Part shown: positions 42,321 to 59,535 of the stretch, piece by piece
Position numbering within the stretch: position 1 is the first letter of the stretch
Layout of the letters: each line of letters starts with the position of its first letter
Assembly (NCBI GenBank): GCA_016795155.1
Contig: JAEUIE010000054.1
Coordinates: forward strand, 1,755 to 65,754
DNA length: 64,000 nt
Source of the DNA: Planctomycetia bacterium
GTDB lineage: Bacteria > Planctomycetota > Planctomycetia > Gemmatales > HRBIN36
Direction: 5' to 3'
The notes under the pieces: generated by a model
Seen by the model: the letters and a program-made list of their open reading frames with translations, nothing else
The model's database searches: none
Told to the model about the DNA's origin: nothing
Position numbers and translations under genes: made by a program

Positions 42321-42384
42321 ATCTCCGGACTCTAGTCTGCTCCATATAGCTTTGCACTCCTGTTTCAGTTACAATTCGCCGCCT

Positions 42385-45300
42385 ATGAAACAATCTACTG
42401 TTCCAACAATCAACGAAGTCGACTTCTGCGGAAAGATGGCGACTGCAGCGACTACATTCTTTGCTAACAACCCAGGTCGATGCCCATTTATAGAAGCTCG
42501 GATTGAAGGTTTAGGCAGCAGTAGAAGCAAAAACGCACGAAAAGATCTGCGTTTCTATGGCCCAAATCAAAAAATCCTACTCACTGGTGAAGTAAAGTTA
42601 CCAGGTAACACCAGCGCGTTCGATTCAAAGGTGGTAAAGGATGCTCACGACAAAGCAGAAGAGGCGATAGTCCAGTATTTCTTTACTTGGGATGTTAACA
42701 CCTTTGTGCTATGGGATCGTTCCCAATGGAAAAAGCCGCTTCTGGAACGACGAATGAAGGTCTGGCAATTACGGCTTAACCTAGCAAGCCCGCAAGAAGT
42801 CGCCCGAACCGAATCACTTGACCACATTGAAAAACGATTTCTTCCGGATCTTCTACTTGATCTATCCGACATAGTATCTGGCCTCAAGCGTGACTGGGCC
42901 TTGCCTCAGGACGAAGTCTTCCTGCGTTCATTGGAAAGTCATCTTGAATGGCCAGTGGCACTTCTGCGATTACACCTTCACCAGAAAACAGAGACTGATA
43001 AAGGATTCGATTTACGACTCCAAGAGTGGATGGTTACCAACGATCTTCAGGTAAGACGAACCCAGCCGGATGAATGGAGAAAAGCGCTCGATACTGCTGC
43101 GCGATCGCTAGCCTATATCTGGACGAATCGACTTATTTTCTACAAAGCGCTGCGCGCACGTTTTCCGGAATTGCCCAAACTCGAACTTGGGTCCAACATC
43201 AAGAACAAGCAGCAAGCATTGAGAAGACTTGATGATCTGTTTACGAAAGCTGCAAAACGCAGTGGCGATTATGAATCGTTGCTGTTTCCCGAAACACATG
43301 ACTGGGCCAATGAATTGGTTTTTGTGCCCGAGGGTTCAGTTGATGCCTGGCGTGGTTTTCTTCGAGGTATTGAGAGTGTCGACTTCCATGAAGTCTCATC
43401 AGATGTTATCGGGCTCATCTTTCAAAAGCTGGTCAGCCCTGAAACCCGTCATCGCTATGGACAGCATTTTACCGGTCCTGATCCAGTCGATTTGATCAAC
43501 TCGTTTTGCATCCGTAAAGCCGATGCAAAAGTTCTTGATCCCGCCTGTGGTTCTGGTTCATTCCTCGTGCGCGCTTATTACCGTAAGCGTGCTATGAACT
43601 CCAGACGCTCTCACGTGGACATGCTGGGTGATCTCTTCGGATGTGACGTTTCTTTGTATCCGGCTCATCTGGCAACGCTCAATCTGGCAGCCCGTGAAAT
43701 CAACGACGAAGCGAATTATCCGAGGATTGAACGGCGTGACTTTTTCGACATCAAGGCAGGGAAGCCTTTCTGTCACATCCCTGAACAACCAAGTGGTGAA
43801 CAGGTTGCTATTAAACTGCCTGAACTCGATGCTGTCGTCGGCAATCCCCCTTATGTTCGACAAGAGAAGATTGCCAAGAAAGATAAGCCAAAGTATGCCA
43901 AGGTTGTTGATGACGCATTCAAGGGCACTGAACTATCCGGGCGGGCTGACTTACATTGTTATTTCTGGCCCCATGCAGCCAGGTTTTTGAAAGAAGGGGC
44001 AGCATTCGGATTCCTGACCAGCGGGCAATGGCTGGATGTTGATTATGGATTTGATTTACAACGATGGATTCTCAAGCATTTCAAGATTATTGCCATTATG
44101 GAGAGTTCCACCGAACGATGGTTTCCCGATGCACGGGTGAAGACTTGTATTACGATTCTTGAACGATGTAGTGATGAGGCAGATCGTCGGAAGAACACTG
44201 TACGCTTCGTCCGTTTCGAGAAACCCCTGGCCGATATCATTGGCAAACCTGCAACGGGTGGTGTTGGTGAAGAAGCGGAAGACCAGGAGCGAATCCGACA
44301 ACAGGCCGTTGATCGAGTTCGTGATGCTATCGAACGGTCAACCCGCAATTGTCACGATGACCGGTGGCGAATACTGGTTAAACGACAAGGAGACTTATGG
44401 GATGATGGGGTTAGAGTCGGGGCTATCCTCAAGGATGTTCCAGTCGACGAATCAGATGAAGAGGATGATACAGAACAGAACAGCGAGAGTTTATCCAAGT
44501 ATGCCATCGCAGCCGAAGGCGATTATGCTGCAGGAAAGTGGGGCCGTTACCTGCGTGCTCCTGATTTGTATTTCGAAATCATGGAGAGAATTAAGGGCCG
44601 CCTTGTACCGTTGGGACAAATAGTGGACATTCGATTTGGTGTGAAGACCGGCTGCGACGCGTTCTTTATGCCCAAGGATGTTACCGATTACTTACTTGAA
44701 CAGTACCCCAAAGAGAACGTGTTCCTGGATGCTGTTGGAATATCTCGAAAGAAAGTATCCAATGGCTCATTAAAGATCATTGAAGATGGCGACGGAACCT
44801 ATCATCCAATCGAACCCCAATTTATTAGGCCTGAAGTTCACAGCTTGATGAAGGTAGATAGACCAGTTGTTAGAGAGAACGATCTTGATCGCGTTGTGCT
44901 ATTGGTCAAATCTCCCTTATCGGCGATCAAAGGCACGTTTGCCTATCGATATGTGAAATATGGAGAGCAAGCGACCTACGCCAGTACGAAGAGCAAGGCT
45001 GTGCCTGTACCTGAACGTTCGACCTGTGCTGCTCGTGATCCTTGGTACGACCTAACCAAACTTGTCAATCCTGGGTTTGCATTCTGGCCTAAATCTCAAC
45101 AATATCGGCACATAATTCCTGCAAATCCGAAAGAGTTAGTGTGCAACTGTAATCTTTATGATTTAGGGGCGAGAGAGTTGAACAAGCAAGATCAACAAGT
45201 GCTTGTGGCCATAATTAATAGCACGCTGATTGGTTTGTTCAAAACTTTCTATGGTCGGTATGCAGGCACAGAAGGCAATCTCAAAACCGAAGTAATCGAC

Positions 45301-46134
45301 GTGAATTTGATCGAAGTTCCTGATCCGCGCGGCGTTGATAACCGTATCGGGGAGAGACTGAAAGCAGCTCTGAGGTCAATATCAAGTCGAGTCGTTGAAG
45401 GCTTGGTAGAGGAAGAACTAAAAGAATGCCATACATATCAACGCGCAATTGAATTATCCAAACGACCGATCACACTTCCTGAAGAACTTAAACAATCTGA
45501 CCGTCGTGAACTAGATGATGCTGTTTTTGAACTGCTTGGTGTAGCTGACCAAAAAGAACGATCCGCCCTTGTTGATCGCCTGTATGAAGAAACGACTTTG
45601 CATTTCCGCGATGTACGAGTCACTGAAATCCAGAAGATGGAGGACCGGCGTAAAGGCGGTAGCACCAGATTTGGCATCACCGATCAAGCTGCCGACGTCT
45701 GGGATGCATTAGACCTTTCCGATATGACTCCATTGACTGAGTGGGTTACCGATCAGGCAGCCGATGAATGGGAAGTTATCAATATTCCAAGTGAGCGCCC
45801 GGTCTATTTATCAGAAGATACACTTTTCGATGCCGAGACAGTCTATTTCGGCAGGGGAAAACGGCAGCACATGGTCTGTCAATCACGAGGCGAAGCCGAG
45901 CTTGTCGCTCGAATGGCTGATCTTGGGGTAAGTGATGATGTAACTGTTCCTAAGCGTCATGAAGATGCCCAGAAACTATTGAAGCGATTGAATGACAGGC
46001 ATTTAGTAGCAGTGAAGCGACTCAGTGAACTCGCAGCTAGTCGTAGCGGTGACAGTGCAATGCAGGATGATGTTTTTAAGCTGCTTGAGCGTTGGTATGT
46101 GCTCGGGAAACCTACGAAAGATAAAAACAGATAA
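42385..46134 (+). CDS. Type IIG restriction-modification enzyme (PD-(D/E)xK nuclease + gamma-class N6-adenine MTase + specificity region), MmeI/Eco57I-like
   Basis: The N-terminus DLRFYGPNQKILLTGEVK is a D-X14-E-X-K motif (compare MmeI DLFWPG..LIEMK). MTase motif I is VLDPACGSGSFLV and motif IV is VVGNPPYV. FGVKTGCDAFF is TaqI_C-like. It is 1249 aa from the ATG at 42385. Confidence 0.75.
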   Translation: MKQSTVPTINEVDFCGKMATAATTFFANNPGRCPFIEARIEGLGSSRSKNARKDLRFYGPNQKILLTGEVKLPGNTSAFDSKVVKDAHDKAEEAIVQYFFTWDVNTFVLWDRSQWKKPLLERRMKVWQLRLNLASPQEVARTESLDHIEKRFLPDLLLDLSDIVSGLKRDWALPQDEVFLRSLESHLEWPVALLRLHLHQKTETDKGFDLRLQEWMVTNDLQVRRTQPDEWRKALDTAARSLAYIWTNRLIFYKALRARFPELPKLELGSNIKNKQQALRRLDDLFTKAAKRSGDYESLLFPETHDWANELVFVPEGSVDAWRGFLRGIESVDFHEVSSDVIGLIFQKLVSPETRHRYGQHFTGPDPVDLINSFCIRKADAKVLDPACGSGSFLVRAYYRKRAMNSRRSHVDMLGDLFGCDVSLYPAHLATLNLAAREINDEANYPRIERRDFFDIKAGKPFCHIPEQPSGEQVAIKLPELDAVVGNPPYVRQEKIAKKDKPKYAKVVDDAFKGTELSGRADLHCYFWPHAARFLKEGAAFGFLTSGQWLDVDYGFDLQRWILKHFKIIAIMESSTERWFPDARVKTCITILERCSDEADRRKNTVRFVRFEKPLADIIGKPATGGVGEEAEDQERIRQQAVDRVRDAIERSTRNCHDDRWRILVKRQGDLWDDGVRVGAILKDVPVDESDEEDDTEQNSESLSKYAIAAEGDYAAGKWGRYLRAPDLYFEIMERIKGRLVPLGQIVDIRFGVKTGCDAFFMPKDVTDYLLEQYPKENVFLDAVGISRKKVSNGSLKIIEDGDGTYHPIEPQFIRPEVHSLMKVDRPVVRENDLDRVVLLVKSPLSAIKGTFAYRYVKYGEQATYASTKSKAVPVPERSTCAARDPWYDLTKLVNPGFAFWPKSQQYRHIIPANPKELVCNCNLYDLGARELNKQDQQVLVAIINSTLIGLFKTFYGRYAGTEGNLKTEVIDVNLIEVPDPRGVDNRIGERLKAALRSISSRVVEGLVEEELKECHTYQRAIELSKRPITLPEELKQSDRRELDDAVFELLGVADQKERSALVDRLYEETTLHFRDVRVTEIQKMEDRRKGGSTRFGITDQAADVWDALDLSDMTPLTEWVTDQAADEWEVINIPSERPVYLSEDTLFDAETVYFGRGKRQHMVCQSRGEAELVARMADLGVSDDVTVPKRHEDAQKLLKRLNDRHLVAVKRLSELAASRSGDSAMQDDVFKLLERWYVLGKPTKDKNR

Positions 46135-46873: not shown

Positions 46874-46885
46874 TTCGATGCTCAG

Positions 46886-47025
46886 CCTCCCCATGCCAAT
46901 ACGCCCTCTTCACCCTGATGAACTGGAAGCCTGGCTCACCATGCGTGAACGGCTGTGGCCTGATTCGCCGCGAGGGGATTTGGCGGAAGAACAGCGGGAG
47001 ATCATCGCCCAGCCGGAGCGGAATG
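46886..47025 (+). pseudogene. Duplicated 5' fragment (44 codons) of the AAC(6')-like gene
   Basis: The 140 bp are about 94% identical to 47858..47997, including the RBS region and MPIRPLHPDELEAWLTMRERLWPDSPRGDLAEEQREIIAQPERN. Similarity ends abruptly at the 29-nt box. Confidence 0.85.
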
Positions 47026-47029
47026 CACC

Positions 47030-47058
47030 GGGTGCCACCGTTTGCGTACTCGCTAACG
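47030..47058 (+). repeat. 29-nt box, copy 2
   Basis: gggtgccaccgtttgcgtactcgctaacg is identical to 46261..46289. Confidence 0.9.
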
Positions 47059-47154
47059 GCGCTACGAGTTCAACACGTTTACCCACCTCAAGTTGCCTTT
47101 TACCCCTTAATCTGTTATCGTCAAAGCGTAGCTTCAGAGCGAAGGAGGTTAGGT

Positions 47155-47394
47155 ATGACCATCAAAGTCGTCTATGAAAATGGCGTGTTTCGTCCGCTGA
47201 AGCCTATTCGTGATGTCAAGGAAGGAACGGAAGCAGAAGTAACCGTTATGAAGCCTCCTCGTCCTCAGCCCACACCGGAGGAAGTCATTGAACGTTTGCT
47301 TCGCATCGCTGACATGCCGTTGGAAGGTGGCGGCAAGCCATTTAGCGGACAGGATCATGATAAAATCCTTTACGGTGATCCTCATCAATCATGA
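47155..47394 (+). CDS. DUF104 (AF2212-like) antitoxin
   Basis: MTIKVVYENGVFRPLKPIRDVKEGTEAEVTV is the canonical DUF104 N-terminus. A GAAGGAGG RBS lies upstream, and the stop overlaps the PIN toxin start. Confidence 0.8.
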   Translation: MTIKVVYENGVFRPLKPIRDVKEGTEAEVTVMKPPRPQPTPEEVIERLLRIADMPLEGGGKPFSGQDHDKILYGDPHQS

Positions 47395-47786
47395 TTTTCG
47401 TTGACACGGGCGCATGGTACGCTTTACTCGTTAATGATGATCCTGATCATCAAAAAGCTCGAGCCTGGGTTGCCGCAAATAGAGAGCGACTGGTTTTGAC
47501 TGACTACATTCTTGACGAAACTTTGACACTGCTGCGAGCACGTGGTCAAAAGAAACAGGCTATTACGTTTGGTTATGACATTCTTGATTTAGAGGTTGCT
47601 GACTTCTATCTTGTGTCCCTCGAAGACATCGAATCAGCCTGGGATATCTTCCAAAAGTATTCTGATAAAGAATGGAGCTTCACCGATTGCACCAGCAAAG
47701 TTGCCATGGAACGATTGGGGATTACTACAGCCTTTGCTTTCGATCAACATTTCCGTCAATTTGGGAATGTCGTGGTTGTACCGTAA
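47391..47786 (+). CDS. vapC: PIN-domain toxin VapC
   Basis: MIFVDTGAWYALLVNDDPDHQKA...LTDYILDETLTLL...SFTDCTS carries the PIN acidic residues. It overlaps the antitoxin by ATGA. Confidence 0.85.
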   Translation: MIFVDTGAWYALLVNDDPDHQKARAWVAANRERLVLTDYILDETLTLLRARGQKKQAITFGYDILDLEVADFYLVSLEDIESAWDIFQKYSDKEWSFTDCTSKVAMERLGITTAFAFDQHFRQFGNVVVVP

Positions 47787-47864
47787 AATTTGCAGACAAA
47801 CCATCGTTCCTTCTGGTATACAGCACAAGATAGAACACTTCCGTCACTAACACTGACCCTCCCC

Positions 47865-48323
47865 ATGCCAATACGCCCACTTCACCCGGATGAACTGGAA
47901 GCCTGGCTCGTCATGCGGGAACGGCTTTGGCCTGATTCGCCGCGAGGGGACTTGGCAGAAGAACAGCGGGAGATCATCGCCCAGCCGGAGCGGAATGGTG
48001 TGCTAGTGGCAGAGTTACAGGGTACGTTGATTGGGTTCGTGGAAGTGTCGCTCCGCGACTGGGCGGAAGGTTGCGAGACACGGCCGGTAGGTTACCTGGA
48101 AGCGTGGTTTGTTGAGCCTGAGCATCGTCGCAGTGGCGTGGGCCGACATTTGGTGGAGGCAGCGGAGAACTGGGCACGTGAGCGGGGCTGCACCGAGATG
48201 GGGTCGGATGCTGAAGTGTGGAATGAAACCAGCCACGCTGCCCATCGGGCCTTGGGGTTTGGAGAAGTCTGCCGGGTGGTGGCGTATAGCAAGAAGATTG
48301 CAGGGGAAATACCTTCCTCCTGA
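47865..48323 (+). CDS. AAC(6')-I-like aminoglycoside N-acetyltransferase (GNAT)
   Basis: LRERLWPDSP..., IGFVEVSLRDWAEGCETRPVGYLEAWFVEPEHRRSGVGRHLVEAAENWARERGCTEMGSDAEVWNETSHAAHRALGFGE is collinear with AAC(6')-Iy/Iz-type enzymes as I remember them. Confidence 0.7.
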   Translation: MPIRPLHPDELEAWLVMRERLWPDSPRGDLAEEQREIIAQPERNGVLVAELQGTLIGFVEVSLRDWAEGCETRPVGYLEAWFVEPEHRRSGVGRHLVEAAENWARERGCTEMGSDAEVWNETSHAAHRALGFGEVCRVVAYSKKIAGEIPSS

Positions 48324-49275: not shown

Positions 49276-49342
49276 ACATTAGAAAAAAAGTTTGGAACAT
49301 GCAGCGCAGGAATTGTGCTTTGGTGGCTACTATATCTCAGAC

Positions 49343-50752
49343 ATGAGTGAACGCCTGATTGCCAGCCTGATGAAGCAGACCAGTCTGCTCACGCACGAGG
49401 GTGCATCCTGTTCGGATGCCCGCCTGCTGGAGCAGTTCGTTGCCTGCCGGGATGAATCGGCGTTCAGCACGCTGGTACGTCGGCATGCTCCCATGGTCTG
49501 GGCGGTTTGCCGGAATGCACTGTATCGGGAAGCTGATGCAGAGGATGCATTCCAGGCAACTTTCCTGGCTCTGGTCAAGCAGGCACATCGTATCCGCCAA
49601 AGTGCAGCGATAGGCGCCTGGCTGCATACTACGGCGGTACGTATTTGCCTAACGCAACGGCGAAGCCAGAGTCGGCGGATTGGTCGGGAGACCCGAGTTG
49701 CCCGCAGTGAAGCTGCGGCACCGCAAGAATCTACCTGGTCAGATGAGCTGGCTCATGCTCATGATGCAATCCGGCAGTTGCCTCGGCGGGAGCATGAAGT
49801 GTTTGTGCTCTGCATGCTGGAAGGCCAGCCACAGAAAGCGGTTGCCCGCAGGCTGGGGTTGCAGGTCAATTCGGTGTCGGGCCTGTTGGCCCGGGCCACC
49901 AAGCGACTGCGATCCAAACTGCAGTCCAGTGGAACCATCTCGCTGGGCGCTCTGGCTGTTGCAGCCAGTTGCCCGGCAGCAGTTCCTGCAACGCTGGTGT
50001 TGCAGACCTGCCGTCTGGTCTGTCCAACGACTGCTCTTTCCAAAACCATACTTTTTCTTTCCACTTCGGTGGTGGAGTCTACGATGCGAAAAGCGTTGCT
50101 GTTAACACTGGTTACTTTCACACTGGGTGTGGGGATTACCACAGGCCGCTGGTTTGTGGGTTCATCCGACGCACAGGATCCTTTCCAGCAACATGCAGGT
50201 CAACCGCCTGCCTCAGTATATCACCCTCCAGCTCAAAGCTACTATTCTGTTAATCTGCCACTCTCTACCTGGGAATACAAGGTCCTCATGGGTGATGGCA
50301 ATGTTTCGGTAGAAAGCAAGCTCAATACGCTGGCTGGTGCCGGCTGGGAACTGTGCACAGCTTCCTCAACGCCATCTGACCAGATGATGTTTGTGTTCAA
50401 GCGTCTGCGCAAGCCCACTAATCTGACAGAAGAACGCCGCTTCCAACCGGTTGAGAAGTCAAACAAGGATGCTTTTACTGACTACTATCGCTTTTCCCAG
50501 GGCAAAGTAGCCTATGAAGATACTGTACCCAGTAAGACGACTTCCACTATCAATATTCCGCTGCAACACACCGATGTCAATTCGATGTCCTTGCTGGTGA
50601 AAGATATCTTCACTGGGTGCAAGATCAATGCTGATGCACGCACCAACAGCCTGGTGATTCAAGGCCCCAGCGAGACGCTGACCCAGGCGAAGAAACTGGT
50701 CGAACGACTTGATCGGCTCGAAGCCAACCGCAGCGACAGCAAGAAGCCGTGA
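49343..50752 (+). CDS. ECF sigma factor fused to a TM helix and a C-terminal extracytoplasmic extension
   Basis: Region 2 is FSTLVRRHAPMVWAVCRNALYREADAEDAFQATFLALV and region 4 is LPRREHEVFVLCMLEGQPQKAVARRLGL. The TM helix is ALLLTLVTFTLGVGITTGRWFVG. It is followed by WEYKVLMG...LAGAGWELC...FVFKR (DUF4177-like) and NIPLQHTDVNSMSLLVKDIF...DARTNSLVIQGPSETLTQAKKLVERLD (secretin-N-like). Confidence 0.75.
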   Translation: MSERLIASLMKQTSLLTHEGASCSDARLLEQFVACRDESAFSTLVRRHAPMVWAVCRNALYREADAEDAFQATFLALVKQAHRIRQSAAIGAWLHTTAVRICLTQRRSQSRRIGRETRVARSEAAAPQESTWSDELAHAHDAIRQLPRREHEVFVLCMLEGQPQKAVARRLGLQVNSVSGLLARATKRLRSKLQSSGTISLGALAVAASCPAAVPATLVLQTCRLVCPTTALSKTILFLSTSVVESTMRKALLLTLVTFTLGVGITTGRWFVGSSDAQDPFQQHAGQPPASVYHPPAQSYYSVNLPLSTWEYKVLMGDGNVSVESKLNTLAGAGWELCTASSTPSDQMMFVFKRLRKPTNLTEERRFQPVEKSNKDAFTDYYRFSQGKVAYEDTVPSKTTSTINIPLQHTDVNSMSLLVKDIFTGCKINADARTNSLVIQGPSETLTQAKKLVERLDRLEANRSDSKKP

Positions 50753-50771
50753 TGAAGTTGAGCCATCGCCA

Positions 50772-50802
50772 AACCTGCAGGAAAACAACTGCAGGTTTTT
50801 TT
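50772..50802 (+). terminator. Rho-independent terminator
   Basis: acctgcag-gaaaacaa-ctgcaggt is followed by ttttttg. Confidence 0.8.
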
Positions 50803-50856: not shown

Positions 50857-51645
50857 ATGCCGCACGTCTTCCATCTCAAGAAATGGTATCTCGATCTCAT
50901 CACGGAAGATGGACGGGTTTTTATCGGCTACGTGGCTCATATACGCTGGTGGCTGCTTTCTATTCATTATCATGGTTATCTGTTTCTTGATGCACAAGGG
51001 CAGGTGCATCATGTCAACCGTTTTCGTCGTGCGAAATCGCCTGAACAGACTGCCGGGCAAATCTGCTGGCGGGCACCGGGCATCCGTGGAGAATGGAACG
51101 CAACCTGTTCCAGCTATCGCGAAACATTACTGCAAAATGCACATGGCAGCATCGACTGGCATTGCCTGATGCCTGCAGCGGAAGCGAAGGTGGTAATAGA
51201 AAGCCAGGAGGCATTTATCGGCAGAGGGTATGTTGAACACATCGAGATGTCTCTACCTCCCTGGAAGTTCCCCATCCATAGACTCTACTGGGGGCGCTAT
51301 CTCAGTCAGCAGGATCATGTCGTCTGGATTCGCTGGGTAAGCGAACAGCATCCCAAAGTATTGTTGTTTCACAACGGCAACAGGCATGAGCAGGCGACTA
51401 TTGAAAGTGAATCGCTGCAATTCAATGATTACCGACTGGCGATGCAGGACTCTTGCACACTGCGAAGTGGTTCGCTCGGAAGCACAGTGCTATCTCATGC
51501 AGGCTGGCTGAAAAAACTGATTCCACGTTCGATGCTGACTCTGTCTGAAACAAAATGGCGTTCGCAGGGTAATCTATTCAGACAGAATAGTCTTATTTCG
51601 CAAGGTTGGGCGATCCACGAAACGGTAGACTGGAGCACTGGCTGA
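50857..51645 (+). CDS. Hypothetical protein, possibly CrtC/AttH-like (carotenoid 1,2-hydratase superfamily)
   Basis: KKWYLDLITEDGRVFIGYVAHI and FIGRGYVEHIEMSLPPWKFPIHRLYWGRY resemble the WWYxDxxxxDG and GxGYxDxNxG...WxWGR motifs of CrtC-like proteins. The assignment is tentative. Confidence 0.4.
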   Translation: MPHVFHLKKWYLDLITEDGRVFIGYVAHIRWWLLSIHYHGYLFLDAQGQVHHVNRFRRAKSPEQTAGQICWRAPGIRGEWNATCSSYRETLLQNAHGSIDWHCLMPAAEAKVVIESQEAFIGRGYVEHIEMSLPPWKFPIHRLYWGRYLSQQDHVVWIRWVSEQHPKVLLFHNGNRHEQATIESESLQFNDYRLAMQDSCTLRSGSLGSTVLSHAGWLKKLIPRSMLTLSETKWRSQGNLFRQNSLISQGWAIHETVDWSTG

Positions 51646-51647
51646 AC

Positions 51648-53576
51648 GTGGGCAAATGGTTATACGGCAGCTTGTTCTGTCTGATTTTGCCTGCGTGGAT
51701 GATCGTCTGGGCCTGGCTGACGCATGATGCCATTCCGGTAACTTTGCAAGGCAGCGAACTGCAAATGGCAGGTGCATTCCTGGCTTTGGCTGGGCTGTTG
51801 CTGCAAGGCCTTGCGATACAGCAGCTTTGGCGAGTGGGGCATGGACTGCCCATGAATGCCTACCCGCCGAGGAATTATGTAACGACAGGCATTTATTATT
51901 TTCTGCGACATCCCATTTATGTAGGGTTTGCCATCGCCTGTGCCGGGGTGTCGTTATGGTCTTTATCATCCTCTGGACTTTTCCTTGTTACTCCAGTGAT
52001 GGCCTTACTCTCTGTCGCTCTTGTTGTGGGATATGAACATCCCGACTTGGTGAACCGATTTGGCAGAGAAACGGTTCGCCAGCATGCTCCGCTGCTGGGG
52101 CCACCTCGCGATGTGCCTGAACCTGCTGATCTGTGCACCCGGCTGGCTGTATGCCTGATTGTCTATGTGCCCTGGGTGCTCCTTTACTACTGGTTGATTT
52201 TCCTGGGTGATTCGCCTCATTTCGTTGCTCTGGCTTTGCCTGGCGAGATGCAGTGGCCGGTACTGGAGTGGACGGAGTTCTTTTATTTTCTCACTTACCC
52301 GTTTGCTCTTCTGGTGCCATTGATTCTCAATCGTAAAGATCAACTCAGGCAATTCGTTTACACAGCCTGGTGGGCGATTGGCATTGGCATTTTTCTGCAG
52401 TACACGTTACCTGTGCATGCACCACCCAGGCCGTTTGAACCCAAGAGCATCTGGGGGAATCTTCTTTTGTGGGAACGGAGCATGGATGGACCGGTGTGTG
52501 CCTTCCCTTCATTTCATGTGATGTGGGCGCTGGTAGCAGCATCATTCTGGTCGTTGGCCTTCCCGCGCTGGAAATGGTGCTGGTGGCTGCTCGCAGTTCT
52601 CATGTCGCTCAGTTGCAGCACGACAGGCAATCATACCGTAGCAGATGTGGTAGCAGGGGTTGCGGTATCTGGGCTGATCCACGAGCGAGAACGCCTTTGG
52701 ACTCTTTTACAGAAAGTCTGCGAACGGCTGGCAAACTCGTGGCACGCCTGGCAGTATGGATCACTACGGATTATCAATCACAGCCCGTTTGCTGGCTTGG
52801 CCTGTGCTGTGGGTATCTTGGTAGTTGGCCAGTTCATTTCCGAGTTGAGTGTCCTTTGGATTATCACCTTGTTGATTCTTGTGAGTGCGTGCATCTGGGG
52901 ACAAGTGGTTACTTGCTCATCAAAACTGCAACGCCCCTTCGGATACTATGGAGCGATTCTTGGCGCAATAGCAGCTGCATGCCTGATCAGTGCGATCTGG
53001 AAATACCCGATTGTCACACTATGTGCCATCGCAGCCTTGGCGGCACCCTGGGTACAGGCCATTGGTCGGCTGCGCTGCCTGGTGCAGGGCTGCTGTCATG
53101 GCAAACCTACGCGGAGTGTGCCTGGCATCGTTTGTACCAACCCACATTCACGGGTCTGTTCCATTTCGAACCTGTCGGGTGTGATGATTCACAACACACA
53201 GCTTTATTCCATTCTTGGTAACATTTTCACAGGCATGCTGCTCTGGCGATTGTGGTATGGAGGTATCAATCCCGCCATGCTTGCTGGTTTGTATGGCATC
53301 CTGAATGGAGCTTTTCGATTCATGGAGGAAGCCTACCGAGGCGAAGTGCAGACTCCGGTACTTGGCAAACTGAAACTGTACCAGTGGCTGAGCCTGGCCA
53401 GCATTGTTGCAGGGATGGTGTTCACCTGTTTGCCTGGATCGAGTTCACTTGAAGTACACTGGCGATTGGACTGGCTTTTGCTGCTGAATAGTCTTGGCTG
53501 TGGATTACTGGCAGCTTTTCTGATGGGGATGGATTTCCCGCAATCGAATAGGCGATTTGCGAGGCTATCGGGATAA
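51648..53576 (+). CDS. Triple-fusion polytopic membrane enzyme: ICMT/PEMT-like methyltransferase + PAP2(_C)-like + Lgt-like diacylglyceryl transferase domains
   Basis: The N-terminal part carries TTGIYYFLRHPIYVGF...YEHPDLVNRFG (ICMT family). The middle part carries HAPPRPF, FPSFHVMWAL and TTGNHTVADVVAG (PAP2 C1-C3-like). The C-terminal part carries GRLRCLVQGCCHGKPT, HNTQLYS and NGAFRFMEEAYRGE (Lgt motifs). The GTG at 51648 lies 3 nt after the upstream stop, and the ORF is open from 51606. Confidence 0.65.
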   Translation: MGKWLYGSLFCLILPAWMIVWAWLTHDAIPVTLQGSELQMAGAFLALAGLLLQGLAIQQLWRVGHGLPMNAYPPRNYVTTGIYYFLRHPIYVGFAIACAGVSLWSLSSSGLFLVTPVMALLSVALVVGYEHPDLVNRFGRETVRQHAPLLGPPRDVPEPADLCTRLAVCLIVYVPWVLLYYWLIFLGDSPHFVALALPGEMQWPVLEWTEFFYFLTYPFALLVPLILNRKDQLRQFVYTAWWAIGIGIFLQYTLPVHAPPRPFEPKSIWGNLLLWERSMDGPVCAFPSFHVMWALVAASFWSLAFPRWKWCWWLLAVLMSLSCSTTGNHTVADVVAGVAVSGLIHERERLWTLLQKVCERLANSWHAWQYGSLRIINHSPFAGLACAVGILVVGQFISELSVLWIITLLILVSACIWGQVVTCSSKLQRPFGYYGAILGAIAAACLISAIWKYPIVTLCAIAALAAPWVQAIGRLRCLVQGCCHGKPTRSVPGIVCTNPHSRVCSISNLSGVMIHNTQLYSILGNIFTGMLLWRLWYGGINPAMLAGLYGILNGAFRFMEEAYRGEVQTPVLGKLKLYQWLSLASIVAGMVFTCLPGSSSLEVHWRLDWLLLLNSLGCGLLAAFLMGMDFPQSNRRFARLSG

Positions 53577-53584
53577 CGAAAAAA

Positions 53585-53607
53585 GCCCGCGAGTATTTCT
53601 CGCGGGC
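53585..53607. terminator. Bidirectional terminator between convergent genes
   Basis: gcccgcgag-tattt-ctcgcgggc has an A-run on the left and tt on the right. It lies between the stops at 53576 (+) and 53633 (-). Confidence 0.75.
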
Positions 53608-53632
53608 TTAACTGGGTTAACCAAGCTCTTCT

Positions 53633-55732
53633 TTACTTCTTCAGCAACTCATTCACCAGATCGGTGGTGCCGTACACGCTCTTGAGCGATTCCATGATGC
53701 CTCGGCAATCAACGGAGACGGCACGAGCGATCACATCGCTGTAGGCATAATCGAGCACGAGCGACTGGATGTTGCCATCGAAGATGATGCCTACGAATTC
53801 ACCCTTGCGATCCACCACGGGAGAACCGGAGTTGCCACCGATGATGTCGGCGGTGCTGACAAAGTTGAAAGGTGTATCAAGCTTCATCTTGTCCTTGGCT
53901 TTATGCCAGCTGTCAGGCAGCTTGAAGGGGTCTTGCCCGCCTTGAGCCTTGCTGCGTTCAAACGCGCCGCCAAGGGTGGTATAAGGAGCAATCTGCTGAC
54001 CATTTTCTTCAAAGCCCTTGATGGGGCCGAAGGAGAGTCGCAGGGTGAAAGTAGCATCTGGGTAAACGCCGGTACCCTGGACAGCAAAGCGTGCCTTGGC
54101 GATCTTGGCATAAGCCTGTCGCTGAGGTTCTTCCACATTCTCTTCAAACTGCTTACGTATTCTACGTGCTTCCTCATCCACGATTTTTGCAACACCGATC
54201 ATCGGATCGCTGCTGGCAGCCACTGCGTCCTTGCCACCTTCGTACAGCTTCTTGCGTTCGCTGACCTGATTCAGCTTGGAGCCACGAACCAGTTCTGCAG
54301 CACGATCGCGAGGGGACTTGCCGGCGAGAATTTTCTTCACCAGCGGATGATCCACTCCAGCCAGTTCGACCATCATGCCGAGTGAATCCGCCAGTTCAAC
54401 GATTTCGAGGTTCTCATGGATCGGAGCCTCGGAGAACAGATCCATTTCGAGGGATTTCAGCCCGGACTGACGGAATTCGCGAAGACGTTCACCATCGGGC
54501 TTGGCACGTTCATCAGCAGCACGCAAGAGGGTGCGGGCTTTGCCGAAGAGATGGCTGTTGAAGGCCTGGCCTCGTTCCCAGAGGTTGTAGTCGATGAAGT
54601 ATTCACGGGCATACTTGAGCGTCGTTTCTACCTCGGCCCATGCCGTCTGGTAATCTTTCAGCTTGGGGTCCTTGGCGACTGATTCACGCAGATCAGCTTC
54701 TTCCTTGGCTTTGCGACCCATCAAGGCTGGGTCCTGCAAACCGGCCAGTCCACCCAGACGTGCCTTGCGGCTGTTCTGAATGCCAAACAGGTCGTCCTGA
54801 GCTTCCTGGGCATTACTCTTGCTGCGGTCGCTATAGGTCTTAAGCATGACTTCCAAACGACGCAGCCAGTTGAGCTGATAGGGAGCCAGCTTGTCGCGGA
54901 TGTATTCCAGGTGTGCCATAGTCAGCCCGCGGCTGGTGCGGCCGGGGTGGCCGGAGACGAAAGTCAGGTCGCCTTCCTTAGTTCCGGTTTCGCTCCATTT
55001 CAGATAGTGTTCAGGCTGAGCTGGTTTGCCATCTTCGTAAGCACGGAAGAAGCATACATCGAGATCGTATCGGGGATATTCGAAGTTGTCTGGATCGCCG
55101 CCGAAGAACGCAATGTCCTTTTCAGGAGCAAACACCAGACGGACATCAGTATATTTCTTGAACTGGTAGAGATGATAAGCGCCGCCGTTGTACAGTGTCA
55201 CAACATCGGCACGGAATTTCTTGTCATCCTTTCCTTCGAGCGCCTTGGCTTCAATTTCGGTCATGGCTTTGCGACGGGCCAGACCGGCATCAGCAGCCGA
55301 CATGCCTTCTTTCACAGCAGCGTTGACCTTGTCTGTCACATCAGTGATGGAAAGGAGCACATTGAGTTCGAGGTCCTTGGCGGGGATTTCTTCCGCAGCA
55401 GTTTTGGCGTAGTAGCCGATGTTGAGGTAATCCTTTTCCTTGGTACTGATCTTCTGGAGTGTGTCGGCACCGACATGGTGATTGGTGAGCACCAGGCCGT
55501 TCGCGGAAACAAAGCTTCCTGATCCACCACTATTGAAGCGCACCGAGGACATGCGCAAGTGGTCGAGCCATTCTTTGGTTGGTTCAAAGTTGTAGCGTTC
55601 TTTCAGAACCTTGAGCGGTGGGTTGTTGTAAAGCCACATGCCTTCATCGGAATGCAGCAGGGTGGTACTGGTCATGGCAAGCAGTCCCGTCAGGGCGAGT
55701 CGGCTCGCCCATCGTTTCAAAAATGTTGGCAC
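53633..55732 (-). CDS. S46 family peptidase (dipeptidyl-peptidase 7/11-like)
   Basis: A signal peptide is followed by SDEGMWLYNNPP, GGSGSFVSANGLVLTNHHV (catalytic His region) and GGNSGSPVVD (catalytic Ser). Confidence 0.9.
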   Translation of the reverse strand: MPTFLKRWASRLALTGLLAMTSTTLLHSDEGMWLYNNPPLKVLKERYNFEPTKEWLDHLRMSSVRFNSGGSGSFVSANGLVLTNHHVGADTLQKISTKEKDYLNIGYYAKTAAEEIPAKDLELNVLLSITDVTDKVNAAVKEGMSAADAGLARRKAMTEIEAKALEGKDDKKFRADVVTLYNGGAYHLYQFKKYTDVRLVFAPEKDIAFFGGDPDNFEYPRYDLDVCFFRAYEDGKPAQPEHYLKWSETGTKEGDLTFVSGHPGRTSRGLTMAHLEYIRDKLAPYQLNWLRRLEVMLKTYSDRSKSNAQEAQDDLFGIQNSRKARLGGLAGLQDPALMGRKAKEEADLRESVAKDPKLKDYQTAWAEVETTLKYAREYFIDYNLWERGQAFNSHLFGKARTLLRAADERAKPDGERLREFRQSGLKSLEMDLFSEAPIHENLEIVELADSLGMMVELAGVDHPLVKKILAGKSPRDRAAELVRGSKLNQVSERKKLYEGGKDAVAASSDPMIGVAKIVDEEARRIRKQFEENVEEPQRQAYAKIAKARFAVQGTGVYPDATFTLRLSFGPIKGFEENGQQIAPYTTLGGAFERSKAQGGQDPFKLPDSWHKAKDKMKLDTPFNFVSTADIIGGNSGSPVVDRKGEFVGIIFDGNIQSLVLDYAYSDVIARAVSVDCRGIMESLKSVYGTTDLVNELLKK

Positions 55733-55992: not shown

Positions 55993-58900
55993 GTGGGCCC
56001 CCTGGTTCTGCTGCATACCGTACTGATCGGCTTTTTTGCGTTTGCTGCCTTCTATCACCTGATGTTGTGGTGGCAGGCAAAACGTGACAGACTGCTTGCA
56101 GCCTTCAGCATCAATTGTTTTCTTCATGCCATCTTCTGTTATGTGCTGGTCGGCATCATGCAGACTGCCTCGATTGATGTAGCCAACTCTCTGCAGCAGT
56201 CACGCTTGTTCATTGCCATCCTGCTGCTACTTACGTGGCTGTGGTGCATGGTCTATCTCACCGGCGTTCGGCCACGATGGTTTGTTGACCCAGTATCGAT
56301 TTTTTTGCTGATACTAGGACTGATACATACGTTGCTGGTTCCCATCAATCCAGCAGTCAAGTCGGTTGAATCGTTTACGCTGCCCTGGAACGAAGTGATT
56401 CATACACCTCAACTGGGCTCGCCCGGGTGGTGGATTATTCTGCACTACGTGATTATCGTGGTGATGGATGGCTTCGTATTGTATTGCAGTTATCTGTACA
56501 GCAGGAAGGATCGACTGGCAGGCAACCTGCTGATCTTAAGCACATCAGGTATCATCCTGCTTCATCTTCTGGACCTGGTTCGCAGTACAGGTCTGATCAC
56601 GTTCCCCTATATCGGTGTTTTTGTCCATCTCTTGTTTGTCCTGGTGATTGCGTATGTTATCGCCCGGCGGAATCAGCAGGTGCGAGTACAGTTGATTGCC
56701 AATGAAGAACGACTGCGAACCCTGAGTGAACAGGCTATGGATGGCATTTTCATAGCAGATACCCGTGGAAATTATGTAGACGTGAATATGGCCGGTGCAG
56801 AAATGCTGGGGTATACCCGTGAAGAAATCCTTTCCAAGAACATTACCGACCTGGTAACAGCGGAAGAAATGGAACGGGTTGCACCGGAATTGCAGCAATT
56901 AATGGCAGGGTTGCCGACTCGTCAAGAATGGCACTTCCGCTGCAAGGATGGTTCAACGCTCATCGGTGAAGTCAACGCCCGGATGCTGCCTGACGGCCGG
57001 GTGCTGGGCGTTTTGCGAGATACCACGGAACGTTCCCGTTCCGAAGCAGCCTTGCGGGAAAGCGAGGAATGGTTGAGGCTGACCAACGAATCGGCCAGCA
57101 TTGGAACGTACGATATTGATCTCATCACGGGCAAGGCACGCTATTCCCCCGTCATGTGCGGGATCCTCGGCATTCCGGGTGGCACGGTCTATCATCGCTC
57201 CGAAGCAATGAAGTTTTTCCATCCGGAAGATATGGACAAAATGGTGAAGCTGATCCAGAGTTCGGAAGAGCCGGGCAGTGATGGTGCAATACACAGTGAA
57301 CACCGCATCATCAGGCCTAATGGTGAAGTGCGCTGGCTGGCCTGGAGTGGCCGCACGCTGTTTGACGAAGGCAAGCCGGTTCGCGCCATCGGCGCCAGCA
57401 TGGATATTACTGATCGCAAACAGGCTGAGGAAACGATTCGCCAGATTGTGGAAGGAATAGCCCCCACTACGGGTCGAAATTTCTTTGTCACGTTAGCCAA
57501 TCACCTGTGCCGGGCCTGCCGGGTGGATTATGCATTGATCGGTGCGATTGATCCAGGCAGTCCCCGGCAGGTGCGAACCCTGGCCAGTTCGCATCGTGGC
57601 GAAATCATTGACAACATCACTTACCAGCTCGCTCATACTCCATGCGAAAGTATCACGCGTGGTGACCTGTGCCATTTCCCCAATGGAGTCGCCCGAGTTT
57701 ACCCGCAGGATAAGATGCTGGCGGATTTGAAAATCGACAGTTACATGGGCATCCCCCTCAAATCGAACAGCGGGCAGGTTCTGGGGTTGATTGCTCTTCT
57801 CCATCATGCTCCACTCCATCAGCCTCAGCAGGCGGAAACCATTCTGCGCGTGGTGGCAGCACGGGCCACTGCGGAACTGGAGCGTGAGCTTTCTGAAACT
57901 GCCCGTAATGAGGCGGAACGGGCCATGCATGAACAGGAAGCATTTCTTCGCATGGCCCAGGAAGCAGCACATATCGGCAGCTGGGAATGGGATGTACGTA
58001 CCAATCTGTTCAAATGGTCGTCGGAACTGGCTCGCATGCATGGCATCAAACTGAGTGAGTTCGATGGCACGCTGTCCATGGTGAAGTCTTTTGTGCACCC
58101 GGATGATATCGCTGTTCTGGAAAAAACCCTTTCCGTAGTACCGACAGGCGGACAGGTCAACCCCTTCGATTTTCGGATCAGGCAGCGCACTGGCAACATA
58201 CGTGATCTGTGGGTGCTGAGCAAAATCTATCGTGATGAGCAGGGAAATCCTTCGCGCGTCATTGGAGTTGCCATCGATATTACGGAACGCAAGCTGGCGG
58301 AAGCCAAGCAAAGGCAACTTGAGGCACAACTGGCACAGGCACAGAAGATGGAAACCATCGGTCGCCTGGCGGGTGGCGTCGCCCATGATTTCAACAATCT
58401 GCTCACCGTCATCAATGGCTACAACGAACTGCTTCGCACCATGACGCCCAGCGACGACAGTCGATCCACCATGCTGGAAGTGATTCATGATGCCGGCGAA
58501 CGGGCCGCTGCACTGACCAGGCAACTGCTTACCTTCAGCCGACAGCAGGTAGTGGAACCTCGCGTGCTGGATTTGAACACCGTGGTCTCAGACACCGACA
58601 AGCTGTTGCGACGGTTGATTGGTGAAGATGTCCGCCTGGTGACCCGGCTGGCTCAGCAACTCTCACCGGTTCATGCAGATCCGGGACAGATCGGGCAGGT
58701 CATTGTCAACCTGGCTGTCAACTCGCGGGATGCCATGCCCCAGGGCGGACAACTGACCTTGGAGACTTCCAATGTCACGGTTGATACGGCACTGGCGGAT
58801 CAGCACCGTGGGGTGAAGCCCGGTTCCTTTGTCATGTTGTCCGTCACGGACACTGGCAGTGGCATGAGCGCCGAGATTCAGTCAAAAATCTTCGAGCCAT

Positions 58901-59535
58901 TCTTCACCACCAAAGGGCCGGGGCGTGGGACCGGCCTGGGATTGGCCACGGTGCGTACCATCGCGGAGGAAGGCGGTGGATTTATCACCGTTTCCAGCGC
59001 CCCTGGAAAAGGCAGTACCTTTCGGTTGTATCTACCAGTCGTGGATGTTCGCGAAGCTCCACCCGCCCGGCAGCGAAAAGATGCAGCACTGCCCCGTGGA
59101 CGCGAAACCATTCTGCTGGTGGAAGATGAGGAAGCTGTCCGCACGGTTACCCGAAAGATTCTGCAGCAGGCAGGGTACCAGGTGGTAGAAGCGGTAGGCG
59201 GACTGGAAGCGCTCAAACTCAGCGAAGATTATCAGGGACGTATTGATATGCTCGTCACCGATGTGGTGATGCCGGGCCTGGGTGGCCGAGAACTGGTGGC
59301 AAAACTCAGCGAGCAGCGACGTAGCCTGAAAGTGCTCTTTTTAAGTGGATACACGGCTGACGCCCTGTTTCGCGATGATGTCCAGCAGGCTGACATAGCC
59401 TTTCTGCAGAAGCCTTTCACTCTCAGTTCTCTCACGCGCAAGGTACGCGAAGTGCTGGACGATCATGTGAAACAGCCAGCAGCCAGTGGTGCAGGATCAG
59501 CGCAACCAGACGGGCTTCAGACACAGTTGTCCTGA
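55993..59535 (+). CDS. Hybrid sensor histidine kinase/response regulator (7TMR-DISM, PAS x3, GAF, HisKA, HATPase, REC)
   Basis: It has seven N-terminal TM helices and several PAS blocks (the DITERK/DITDRK boundaries). The H-box is GGVAHDFNNLL. The N/G boxes are NLAVNSRDAM, DTGSGM and GTGLGLA. The receiver domain carries ILLVEDEE...DMLVTDVVMPG. Confidence 0.9.
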   Translation: MGPLVLLHTVLIGFFAFAAFYHLMLWWQAKRDRLLAAFSINCFLHAIFCYVLVGIMQTASIDVANSLQQSRLFIAILLLLTWLWCMVYLTGVRPRWFVDPVSIFLLILGLIHTLLVPINPAVKSVESFTLPWNEVIHTPQLGSPGWWIILHYVIIVVMDGFVLYCSYLYSRKDRLAGNLLILSTSGIILLHLLDLVRSTGLITFPYIGVFVHLLFVLVIAYVIARRNQQVRVQLIANEERLRTLSEQAMDGIFIADTRGNYVDVNMAGAEMLGYTREEILSKNITDLVTAEEMERVAPELQQLMAGLPTRQEWHFRCKDGSTLIGEVNARMLPDGRVLGVLRDTTERSRSEAALRESEEWLRLTNESASIGTYDIDLITGKARYSPVMCGILGIPGGTVYHRSEAMKFFHPEDMDKMVKLIQSSEEPGSDGAIHSEHRIIRPNGEVRWLAWSGRTLFDEGKPVRAIGASMDITDRKQAEETIRQIVEGIAPTTGRNFFVTLANHLCRACRVDYALIGAIDPGSPRQVRTLASSHRGEIIDNITYQLAHTPCESITRGDLCHFPNGVARVYPQDKMLADLKIDSYMGIPLKSNSGQVLGLIALLHHAPLHQPQQAETILRVVAARATAELERELSETARNEAERAMHEQEAFLRMAQEAAHIGSWEWDVRTNLFKWSSELARMHGIKLSEFDGTLSMVKSFVHPDDIAVLEKTLSVVPTGGQVNPFDFRIRQRTGNIRDLWVLSKIYRDEQGNPSRVIGVAIDITERKLAEAKQRQLEAQLAQAQKMETIGRLAGGVAHDFNNLLTVINGYNELLRTMTPSDDSRSTMLEVIHDAGERAAALTRQLLTFSRQQVVEPRVLDLNTVVSDTDKLLRRLIGEDVRLVTRLAQQLSPVHADPGQIGQVIVNLAVNSRDAMPQGGQLTLETSNVTVDTALADQHRGVKPGSFVMLSVTDTGSGMSAEIQSKIFEPFFTTKGPGRGTGLGLATVRTIAEEGGGFITVSSAPGKGSTFRLYLPVVDVREAPPARQRKDAALPRGRETILLVEDEEAVRTVTRKILQQAGYQVVEAVGGLEALKLSEDYQGRIDMLVTDVVMPGLGGRELVAKLSEQRRSLKVLFLSGYTADALFRDDVQQADIAFLQKPFTLSSLTRKVREVLDDHVKQPAASGAGSAQPDGLQTQLS

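Follow-up and report, generated by a model that had tools for sequence, protein, structure and literature searches.

We describe a two-gene module in a 64,000-nucleotide (nt) window, the whole stretch of DNA analysed here, from a contig (JAEUIE010000054.1) of a Planctomycetia bacterium. Its first open reading frame (ORF1) encodes a 262-amino-acid (aa) double beta-barrel protein. The second, ORF2, encodes a 642-aa membrane protein in which an isoprenylcysteine methyltransferase (ICMT)-like domain, a PAP2-like phosphotransferase and a domain with the fold of prolipoprotein diacylglyceryl transferase (Lgt) are joined in a single chain. The two genes form a translationally coupled, self-contained module that is kept as a pair across several phyla, and the module is widespread rather than rare. 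The Lgt-fold domain has exchanged the residues that define a true Lgt for an invariant cluster of cysteines and a histidine. We therefore hold, with good confidence, that the module tailors lipids and does not mature lipoproteins. As for whether it does so as a self-contained assembly line, with the steps proposed below, we lean neither way.

The triple-domain architecture of ORF2, together with its pairing with ORF1, is nearly certain to be real. A sequence-only reading of the window had proposed the fusion from motifs, and profile searches bear it out for all three families, not just two. Each scores above its curated Pfam gathering cut-off on the longer, 656-aa version of the ORF: PEMT at 36.5 bits (cut-off 25, residues 55-154), PAP2_3 at 65.2 bits (cut-off 27, residues 226-359) and LGT at 81 bits (cut-off 24.9, residues 446-607). 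Elsewhere in this text ORF2 residues are counted from its GTG start and are 14 lower than in the 656-aa, TTG-start ORF. Two of the three domains are also matched structurally, to Escherichia coli Lgt (EcLgt; 5AZB) and to yeast Aur1 (9VJ4). The helices of a structural model and the hydropathy profile place 4 + 6 + 8 = 18 membrane segments in the three domains. The model was built with AlphaFold from ORF1 joined to ORF2, mimicking natural fusions, and is confident (predicted local distance difference test, pLDDT, 93.8; predicted template modelling score, pTM, 0.80).

The homologues of ORF2 decide whether the fusion might be an artefact, that is, a mis-assembly or frameshift joining separate genes, or a decaying pseudogene. 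A search with ORF2 returned more than 2,500 proteins (clusters at 90% identity). Of the best 120, nearly all have 640-645 aa, and they align over 100% of the query and carry the three Pfam domains in unchanged order. Hundreds of homologues are full-length and collinear at 40-70% identity, 80 genome loci are collinear, and these come from many independent assemblies and phyla. In an alignment of 75 homologues (about 40-50% identity), which is used throughout, the catalytic motifs of all three domains are invariant or nearly so. An artefact could appeal to one relative, 65% identical, whose long gene is split in two assemblies into overlapping ORFs of 423 aa and 228 aa (L082:4219-6937 and L083:218-2936), but no domain boundary lies at this break, which is within the Lgt fold. 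The collinear homologues and invariant motifs rule out mis-assembly, frameshift and pseudogene origin, the confident single-chain model argues the same way, and we leave such an artefact practically no chance. The split itself recurs unchanged in two assemblies made from separate sequencing runs and lies at about the second to third transmembrane helix of the Lgt fold. Since it falls within that fold, it looks like a frameshift, and is probably a real one in that strain and not the ancestral state.

Coupling between the two genes, which had likewise been claimed from the window, is borne out by their adjacency and by natural fusions. An ORF1 homologue lies directly upstream of ORF2 on the same strand in 77 of the 80 loci, and the other three are contigs that end before that position. 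Adjacency therefore holds in 77/77 informative loci, drawn from several phyla. The conserved N-terminus of ORF2 (GKxxYG) usually begins 8-30 nt past the ORF1 stop codon, so that the start codons overlap or abut the stop. All-against-all clustering of the ORFs within 8 kb of the 80 loci gave no other conserved neighbour; besides the two genes, it recovered spurious overlapping ORFs and sporadic histidine kinases and ABC ATPases. Plasmids gave no match to the module.

A scan with one genome per species yielded at least 586 confirmed pattern matches. Up to two patterns can match per gene, and the matches consequently correspond to no fewer than a few hundred genomes. Among the carriers are Gemmatales, many Bacteroidota, Gemmatimonadota, Acidobacteriota, Zixibacteria, Desulfobulbales and Thermodesulfovibrionales, as well as the isolate Hymenobacter sp. 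CCM 8763. Proteins of about 903 aa, from metagenomes as well as from bdelloid rotifers (Adineta and Rotaria), have an ORF1 homologue fused in frame to the tri-domain protein. The rotifer members (P0063, P0066, P0070, P0074, P0084 and P0094) each form a single uninterrupted ORF, they come from several species, and their ORF1 part matches with 34% identity and an expectation value (E) of 1e-53. One of them lies on an 18-Mb, chromosome-scale Adineta vaga contig and another (L081:8001-10712) on a gene-poor contig of 32% GC; these settings rule out contamination and show a genuine transfer into animals. The rotifer proteins thus show that both genes of a bacterial pathway moved horizontally into an animal, with fusion into one gene of four domains; here an animal has cleanly domesticated a pathway in its entirety. 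An exhaustive profile search found 1,358 representatives of the ORF1 family, nearly all 250-300 aa long, with two further fusions among the 150 listed, one of which is the protein P0261 described below.

We now turn to the Lgt-fold domain, on which the functional reading depends. The family profile matches EcLgt among solved structures (5AZB, E = 4e-6), and a Foldseek search with the joined model aligns the same structure across 268 of 284 columns (TMt 0.60), which indicates that the fold is complete. As in EcLgt (5AZB/5AZC; PF01790), the model has an arm (a beta-hairpin at residues 367-376), seven transmembrane helices, and a head between the fourth and fifth of them, and the H196-x-x-Q-L-Y and GQ(I/W)LS motifs are kept. 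Unlike EcLgt, ORF2 adds an eighth transmembrane helix, a conserved DFP..R..RL tail and two fused enzymes. The phosphate-binding residues R143 and R239 of EcLgt, together with E243 and R246, correspond to R474, R557, E561 and R564, invariant in 75/75 homologues. The Lgt signature, in contrast, is rewired. Where EcLgt has GRLGNFINGELWG, ORF2 has GRLRCLVQGCCHG, which is also invariant in 75/75 homologues: R143 is retained, while N146 becomes C477, N149 becomes Q480, E151 becomes C482, L152 becomes C483 and W153 becomes H484. The outcome is an invariant RCxxQGCCHG motif within the Lgt fold. The HGGL motif of EcLgt, at the start of its third transmembrane helix, aligns to Y-Y-G-A, with H103 replaced by Y433. 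A motif search of the window found GRLRCLVQGCCHG alone, with no second canonical Lgt signature elsewhere.

These exchanges affect residues that EcLgt needs. Its H103A/N/Q/R/Y and E151A/Q mutants all lack activity. For H103 a role in binding the lipobox peptide is proposed, and N146 and E151 bind phosphatidylglycerol through its glycerol head group (PMC4728403). The NCBIfam equivalog models for Lgt score ORF2 far under their cut-offs (NF000778, 54.6 against 334; TIGR00544, 33.9 against 118.9). Because H103 and E151 are replaced and the equivalog scores fall so short, ORF2 is very unlikely to be a true Lgt, and the name "prolipoprotein diacylglyceryl transferase" given to it by NCBI is probably wrong. 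The label probably also misleads inventories of the lipoprotein pathway.

The orientation of this domain in the membrane also appears to differ from that of EcLgt, whose head is periplasmic and negatively charged and whose cytoplasmic face is positive (PMC4728403). An Lgt has its active site on the periplasmic face, with the N-terminus out and the C-terminus in. The N-terminus of ORF2 and its ICMT-type motifs are placed inside, because ORF1 and S-adenosylmethionine are cytoplasmic. The PAP2 domain, with six transmembrane helices, would then carry its motifs on the outside, where all PAP2 enzymes have them, and would end inside. The linker between the PAP2 domain and the Lgt fold (residues 346-378, 33 residues) is polar, with a hydropathy of -1.0 to +0.3, and has no transmembrane helix, so the Lgt arm should start on the cytoplasmic side. 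Net charges across the alignment are +3.8 for this linker, +3.1 for the loop equivalent to the head (481-516), +1.7 for the loop 563-576 and +1.25 for the tail, and the loops matching the cytoplasmic ARRTKRS and IRKPRP loops of EcLgt are uncharged (about -0.2 net). The head of ORF2 is thus net positive rather than negative, and the Arg/Lys-rich cytoplasmic loops of EcLgt have lost their charge. Taken together, connectivity and loop charges suggest with moderate confidence that the Lgt-fold domain sits upside down relative to EcLgt, its cavity facing the cytoplasm. ORF1, the methyltransferase site and the Lgt cavity would then all face the cytoplasm, and the Aur1-like site alone would be periplasmic.

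These results bear directly on the reading that ORF2 is an Lgt paralogue which lipidates lipobox cysteines and merely carries accessory domains. The Pfam LGT score, the full Lgt fold, the NCBI naming and the kept equivalents of R143 and R239 all speak for such an enzyme. However, the exchanges of H103 for Tyr, E151 for Cys and N146 for Cys, two of them at positions where EcLgt mutants are inactive (PMC4728403), and the scores far under both equivalog cut-offs lead us to reject canonical Lgt identity. The active face is moreover probably cytoplasmic, where exported lipobox cysteines do not occur; the partner that is obligately paired with ORF2 has no signal peptide; and the module is maintained in rotifers, although animals are not expected to make lipobox lipoproteins. 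Lipoprotein lipidation by ORF2 is accordingly very improbable.

The middle domain of ORF2 belongs to the Aur1/sphingomyelin-synthase branch of the PAP2 enzymes. Among solved structures the family profile matches the yeast Aur1 inositol phosphorylceramide (IPC) synthase (9VJ3, E = 4.5e-3), aligned across both catalytic motifs, and Foldseek with the joined model gives 9VJ4 (TMt 0.48). The domain shares with this branch (9VJ3/9VJ4; PF14378) the FPS(F/L)H and S-x-x5-H-x3-D motifs at canonical spacing, the lack of an Arg in the C3 motif, and a six-helix core with its active site on the predicted non-cytoplasmic face. H290, H329, D333 and C323 are present in 75/75 homologues, leaving the His-His-Asp triad intact. 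Features of the lipid phosphate phosphatases of the PgpB/BcrC type, which act on monoesters and pyrophosphates, are missing from the ORF2 alignment, which has no conserved C1 Lys/Arg pair (K-x6-R-P) and replaces the C3 Arg with an invariant Cys. This residue, C323, stands at the place of the conserved Arg of the PAP2 C3 motif (S-R-x5-H-x3-D), where Aur1 has Thr, on the predicted periplasmic face. Further differences from Aur1 are that no Kei1-like partner accompanies the domain, that it is set between two other catalytic domains, and that its catalytic motifs are dispensable in one lineage of the module. That lineage is represented by P0261, an 854-aa one-chain fusion of the module that is encoded at high GC, rich in Ala, Arg and Gly, and bacterial in character. 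P0261 lacks the PSFH motif, the H..D motif and the periplasmic loops of PAP2, and keeps the hydrophobic segments and the ICMT and Lgt-fold motifs.

Given the intact and invariant triad, the 65-bit PAP2_3 score and yeast IPC synthase as the closest solved relative, the Aur1-like domain could itself be the core of the module. ORF2 would in that event be a bacterial synthase of phospho-sphingolipids or of other phospho-head-group lipids, and the remaining domains would adjust the head group, as by methylating it. Bacteroidota, known to produce sphingolipids, account for many of the carriers, which fits. The case for such a core is weakened by P0261, which lost the PAP2 catalytic motifs and kept all else. 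The other three modules are equally conserved, sphingolipid genes are not conserved near the 80 loci, and three out of the four modules seem to be oriented towards the side of the membrane opposite the Aur1-like site. We give a phospho-head-group synthase built around this domain only a small probability.

For the N-terminal domain, the ICMT Pfam model reaches 20.6 bits, under its cut-off of 24; a profile of the first 150 residues matches the ICMT structures 5VG9, 5V7P and 4A2N weakly (E = 0.02-0.24), on VTxGxYxxxRHPxYxG; and a single-sequence search of this domain alone against the PDB gave no match. Three motifs mark the domain: GxGLPMNAYPP, V78-T-x-G-x-Y-x3-(R)HPIY-x-G93, and G128-Y-E130...L..RFG. 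In the counterpart of the R-H-P-x-Y-x-G cofactor motif, HPIY and G93 are essentially invariant, while R, S, K, P or A can stand in the place of the Arg before them; G128-x-E130, with its single Glu, is invariant. To our knowledge, GxGLPMNAYPP, which is invariant too, is foreign to the ICMT/PEMT consensus. What the domain appears to share with ICMT/Ste14 and PEMT (4A2N, 5V7P/5VG9; PF04140/PF04191) is the sequence V-T-x-G-x-Y-x3-(R)HP-x-Y-x-G, a transmembrane hairpin and then the acidic E...L..(R)FG, with both motifs predicted on the cytoplasmic side. It differs from them in being a minimal four-helix core of about 140 aa, in having one Glu for the EE(E) cluster, in lacking the C-terminal Y..Y, and in its variable RHP Arg. 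The canonical substrate of ICMT is prenylcysteine. ICMT-family enzymes such as MddA S-methylate small thiols; a literature search on this link returned nothing.

ORF1 was described by the sequence-only reading as CrtC/AttH-like, and this stands at the level of the fold but has no Pfam family behind it. Its own AlphaFold model (pLDDT 95, pTM 0.92) is almost all beta. Foldseek against the PDB returns AttH (2ICH), kievitone hydratase (7A0T/7A0Q), 25-phosphosteroid lyase (9G4C) and 7E5T at probability 1.0, with E from 8e-9 to 3e-6 and TM normalised to the query of 0.47-0.62; the fungal decalin Diels-Alderases Fsa2, Phm7 and CghA fall in the same range. There was no meaningful Pfam or NCBIfam match for ORF1, and none in Pfam for any of 43 aligned relatives: CrtC_N (PF07143) and Lipocalin_9 (PF17186) gave nothing at E <= 1 in any of the 43, and an ORF1 profile gave nothing at E <= 10 against PDB sequences. 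An Apyrase match (E 0.033, 14 bits) was rejected as noise. Compared with its CrtC/AttH matches, with which it shares the double beta-barrel, ORF1 is 60-110 residues shorter and 8-12% identical, and its family serves solely as an obligate partner to the tri-domain membrane protein or as a part fused to it. The conserved K9-W-Y-x-D13 begins at residue 9 and leaves no room for a signal peptide; ORF1 is therefore cytoplasmic. K9, W10, Y11, D13, Y125, E127, W145, W157, W234, W251, H254 and E255 are invariant, and the invariant set further takes in R147, E231, K233 and about ten Trp altogether. Aromatic and acid/base residues abound in this set, as in the CrtC/AttH superfamily, and the set looks like an enzyme pocket rather than that of a passive carrier.

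The structural neighbours of ORF1 invite an isoprenoid version of the assembly line, in which the substrate is a polyprenyl (di)phosphate or another isoprenoid, such as a carotenoid or a hopanoid-type tail. ORF1 would hydrate or eliminate at the terminal isoprene unit, as do CrtC, kievitone hydratase and 25-phosphosteroid lyase. The Lgt fold would transfer the polyprenyl group to a thiol with phosphate leaving, the ICMT-like domain would then perform its canonical reaction, here on a product resembling S-prenyl-cysteine, and polyprenyl phosphate would be dealt with by the PAP2 domain at the outer face. Isoprenoid or polyene tails are the substrates of all characterised structural neighbours of ORF1, and its roughly ten conserved Trp with the invariant Asp, Glu, Tyr and His would fit carbocation chemistry. 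ICMT acts on prenylcysteine, and PAP2 enzymes include polyprenyl-diphosphate phosphatases. Loss of E151, the residue that filters for the phosphatidylglycerol head group in EcLgt, means that the donor need not be phosphatidylglycerol. Yet the PAP2 domain is of the Aur1/phosphodiester-transferase type, without the C1 Lys/Arg and with C323 at the place of the C3 Arg; the equivalents of R143, R239, E243 and R246, which bind glycerophospholipid, are kept; and isoprenoid or carotenoid genes are not conserved near the 80 loci. We regard an isoprenoid substrate as rather unlikely.

The assembly line that we propose would begin at the Lgt fold. This domain would bind a phosphate-ester lipid through the retained Arg/Glu network. 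The lipid could be a polyprenyl phosphate, but the analogy with Lgt points to a glycerophospholipid as the donor of a diacylglyceryl group. The domain would pass the alkyl group of that lipid to a nucleophile in the cytoplasm, for which a thiol at the Cys3-His site is the most plausible candidate. Farnesyltransferase performs a zinc-thiolate alkyl transfer, and the proposed thiol step may be likened to it, as an analogy only. The ICMT-like domain would methylate the lipid-linked product, as ICMT does with S-prenylcysteine, and the ORF1 barrel might carry out a hydration- or elimination-type step on the hydrophobic tail, or present the tail. The Aur1-like domain would add or exchange a phospho-head group in the outer leaflet. 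ORF1, the methyltransferase and the Lgt fold would then be a cytoplasm-facing core, with the phosphotransferase an accessory; its step appears accessory because the lineage of P0261 has lost its catalytic motifs. By analogy with these enzymes, thiol alkylation followed by methylation would be the specific chemistry, and in that detail the proposal is distinctly doubtful. Tentatively, the module may make an undescribed class of lipid, for example one that is thioether-linked, methyl-esterified and phosphate-free, built at the cytoplasmic face by the inverted Cys3-His Lgt fold; we see this as possible, though short of an even chance.

Several considerations weigh against this proposal. The donor, acceptor and product of the module are all inferred. 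The Cys3-His cluster could work as a Cys-His catalytic dyad that transfers or hydrolyses acyl groups, or could bind a metal for structural purposes alone. The inversion of the Lgt fold is drawn from connectivity and charge bias, and the tally of 'inside' charge is raised by conserved Arg and Lys that serve in catalysis. A single linear pathway does not readily accommodate active sites on either side of the membrane, and a single cluster representative, P0261, is the basis for calling the PAP2 domain accessory. The ICMT-type superfamily also includes NADPH-dependent reductases, and some homologues match DUF1295 (PF06966).

The module might instead serve resistance or detoxification, modifying or neutralising a lipophilic xenobiotic or a small thiol and making no bulk membrane lipid. 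A role of this kind would explain its usefulness after transfer to rotifers. The module is self-contained, has no conserved partners, and was transferred horizontally to and retained in soil and freshwater animals, and the S-methylation of small thiols by ICMT-family enzymes such as MddA would fit as well. Set against it, four conserved catalytic modules exceed the needs of most resistance enzymes, and the module is associated neither with efflux or regulator genes in the 80 loci nor with plasmids. We consider detoxification quite improbable.

The superfamily of each domain is known and the proteins are already in databases, under names for the ORF2 family that conflict (Lgt, Ste14 and Aur1/Ipt1 domain-containing). 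The combination, the pairing, the Lgt variant and the rotifer fusions are new in the sense that the literature we found does not describe them: our searches returned no publication on the architecture, the pairing with a barrel protein, a Cys-rich Lgt variant or the rotifer fusions, and a preprint on the Lipocone superfamily mentions Lgt as background only. The earlier statement that no system of this architecture had been described agrees with these searches. With more than 2,500 protein clusters in several hundred species genomes, spread over several phyla and bdelloid rotifers, the family is large and apparently unstudied. If the proposed assembly line is correct, it would show an Lgt fold that has been repurposed and inverted, the first Lgt-fold enzyme with a non-protein acceptor, and four lipid enzymes wired into one machine with sites on both membrane faces. 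It may also reveal a new class of membrane lipid in abundant soil and freshwater bacteria.

Table 1. Coordinates of the module, its motifs and neighbouring features in the window.
Feature	Position	Strand	Remark
ORF1 (262 aa, cytoplasmic double beta-barrel, CrtC/AttH-like fold)	50857..51645	+	NCBI MBL8824684.1 "hypothetical protein"
ORF2 (642 aa, 18 hydrophobic segments, three domains)	51648..53576	+	GTG start
Four-helix ICMT/PEMT-type methyltransferase core, ORF2 residues 1-150	51648..52097	+	Pfam PEMT
V78-T-x-G-x-Y-x3-(R)HPIY-x-G93	51879-51926	+	ICMT/PEMT-type motif
Six-helix Aur1/sphingomyelin-synthase-type PAP2 phosphotransferase, ORF2 residues ~155-346	52110..52685	+	PAP2_3
P287-S-F-H290	52506-52517	+	PAP2 C2 motif
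S322-C-x5-H329-x3-D333	52611-52646	+	PAP2 C3 motif
C323	52614-52616	+	in place of the C3 Arg
Polar, positively charged amphipathic linker helix, ORF2 residues 347-362	52686..52733	+	no transmembrane potential; helix 609-624 of the joined model
Lgt fold with eighth transmembrane helix and DFP...RxxRL tail, ORF2 residues 363-642	52734..53573	+	Pfam LGT, 5AZB
GRLRCLVQGCCHG (G473 to G485)	53064..53102	+	counterpart of the Lgt signature GRLGNFINGELWG (G142 to G154)
Terminator-like hairpin and T-run	50771..50798	+	ends upstream ECF-sigma-like gene; 5' edge of the unit
GC-rich 11-bp hairpin	53583..53609	-	separates ORF2 from the convergent S46 peptidase gene; minus-strand T-run
DNA methyltransferase gene (1,260 aa)	42352-46134	+	N6_Mtase, Eco57I and MmeI_Mtase domains
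145-nt direct repeat, first copy	46881-47025		93% identity between copies
AF2212-like antitoxin	within 46918-47394		
PIN toxin	47391-47786		
GNAT acetyltransferase gene	47790-48323		
145-nt direct repeat, second copy	47853-47997		
ECF-type sigma factor gene	49292-50752	+	Sigma70 regions 2 and 4
Peptidase_S46 gene	53633-55732	-	dipeptidyl-peptidase type
PAS/GAF hybrid histidine kinase gene	55993-59535	+	

The boundaries of the two genes in the window (Table 1) agree with the coordinates of the sequence-only reading, and all the motifs it quoted are present. It had placed the start of ORF2 3 nt past the stop of ORF1, and this is so: the TGA occupies 51643-51645 and the GTG begins at the third base past it, leaving 2 nt between. 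An alternative TTG start at 51606 would give 656 aa with the same end at 53576. The GTG is the supported start, because the alignments of homologues begin there and the NCBI record MBL8824685.1, from a 94-kb contig in a Planctomycetia metagenome-assembled genome, is identical to ORF2 at exactly 642 aa; the record of ORF1 carries the adjacent accession. Terminators had been placed on both sides of the unit. Hairpins do lie on both sides, but the downstream one has its T-run on the minus strand and primarily terminates the convergent S46 peptidase gene.

The genes that flank the module in the window are unrelated to it. Downstream lie the S46 peptidase gene, convergent with the module, and a large hybrid histidine kinase gene, neither of which is kept beside the module in other genomes. 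Upstream, the extracytoplasmic function (ECF)-type sigma factor has a hydrophobic stretch in mid-protein and a C-terminal Secretin_N-like domain, an unusual fusion. Farther upstream, the 145-nt direct repeat duplicates the 5' end of the GNAT acetyltransferase gene and brackets the toxin-antitoxin pair, an arrangement that looks like a cassette insertion with target duplication. The 1,260-aa protein beyond it is a DNA methyltransferase of the type IIG or BREX PglX-like kind, and the region upstream of the module therefore looks like an islet of defence and toxin-antitoxin genes.

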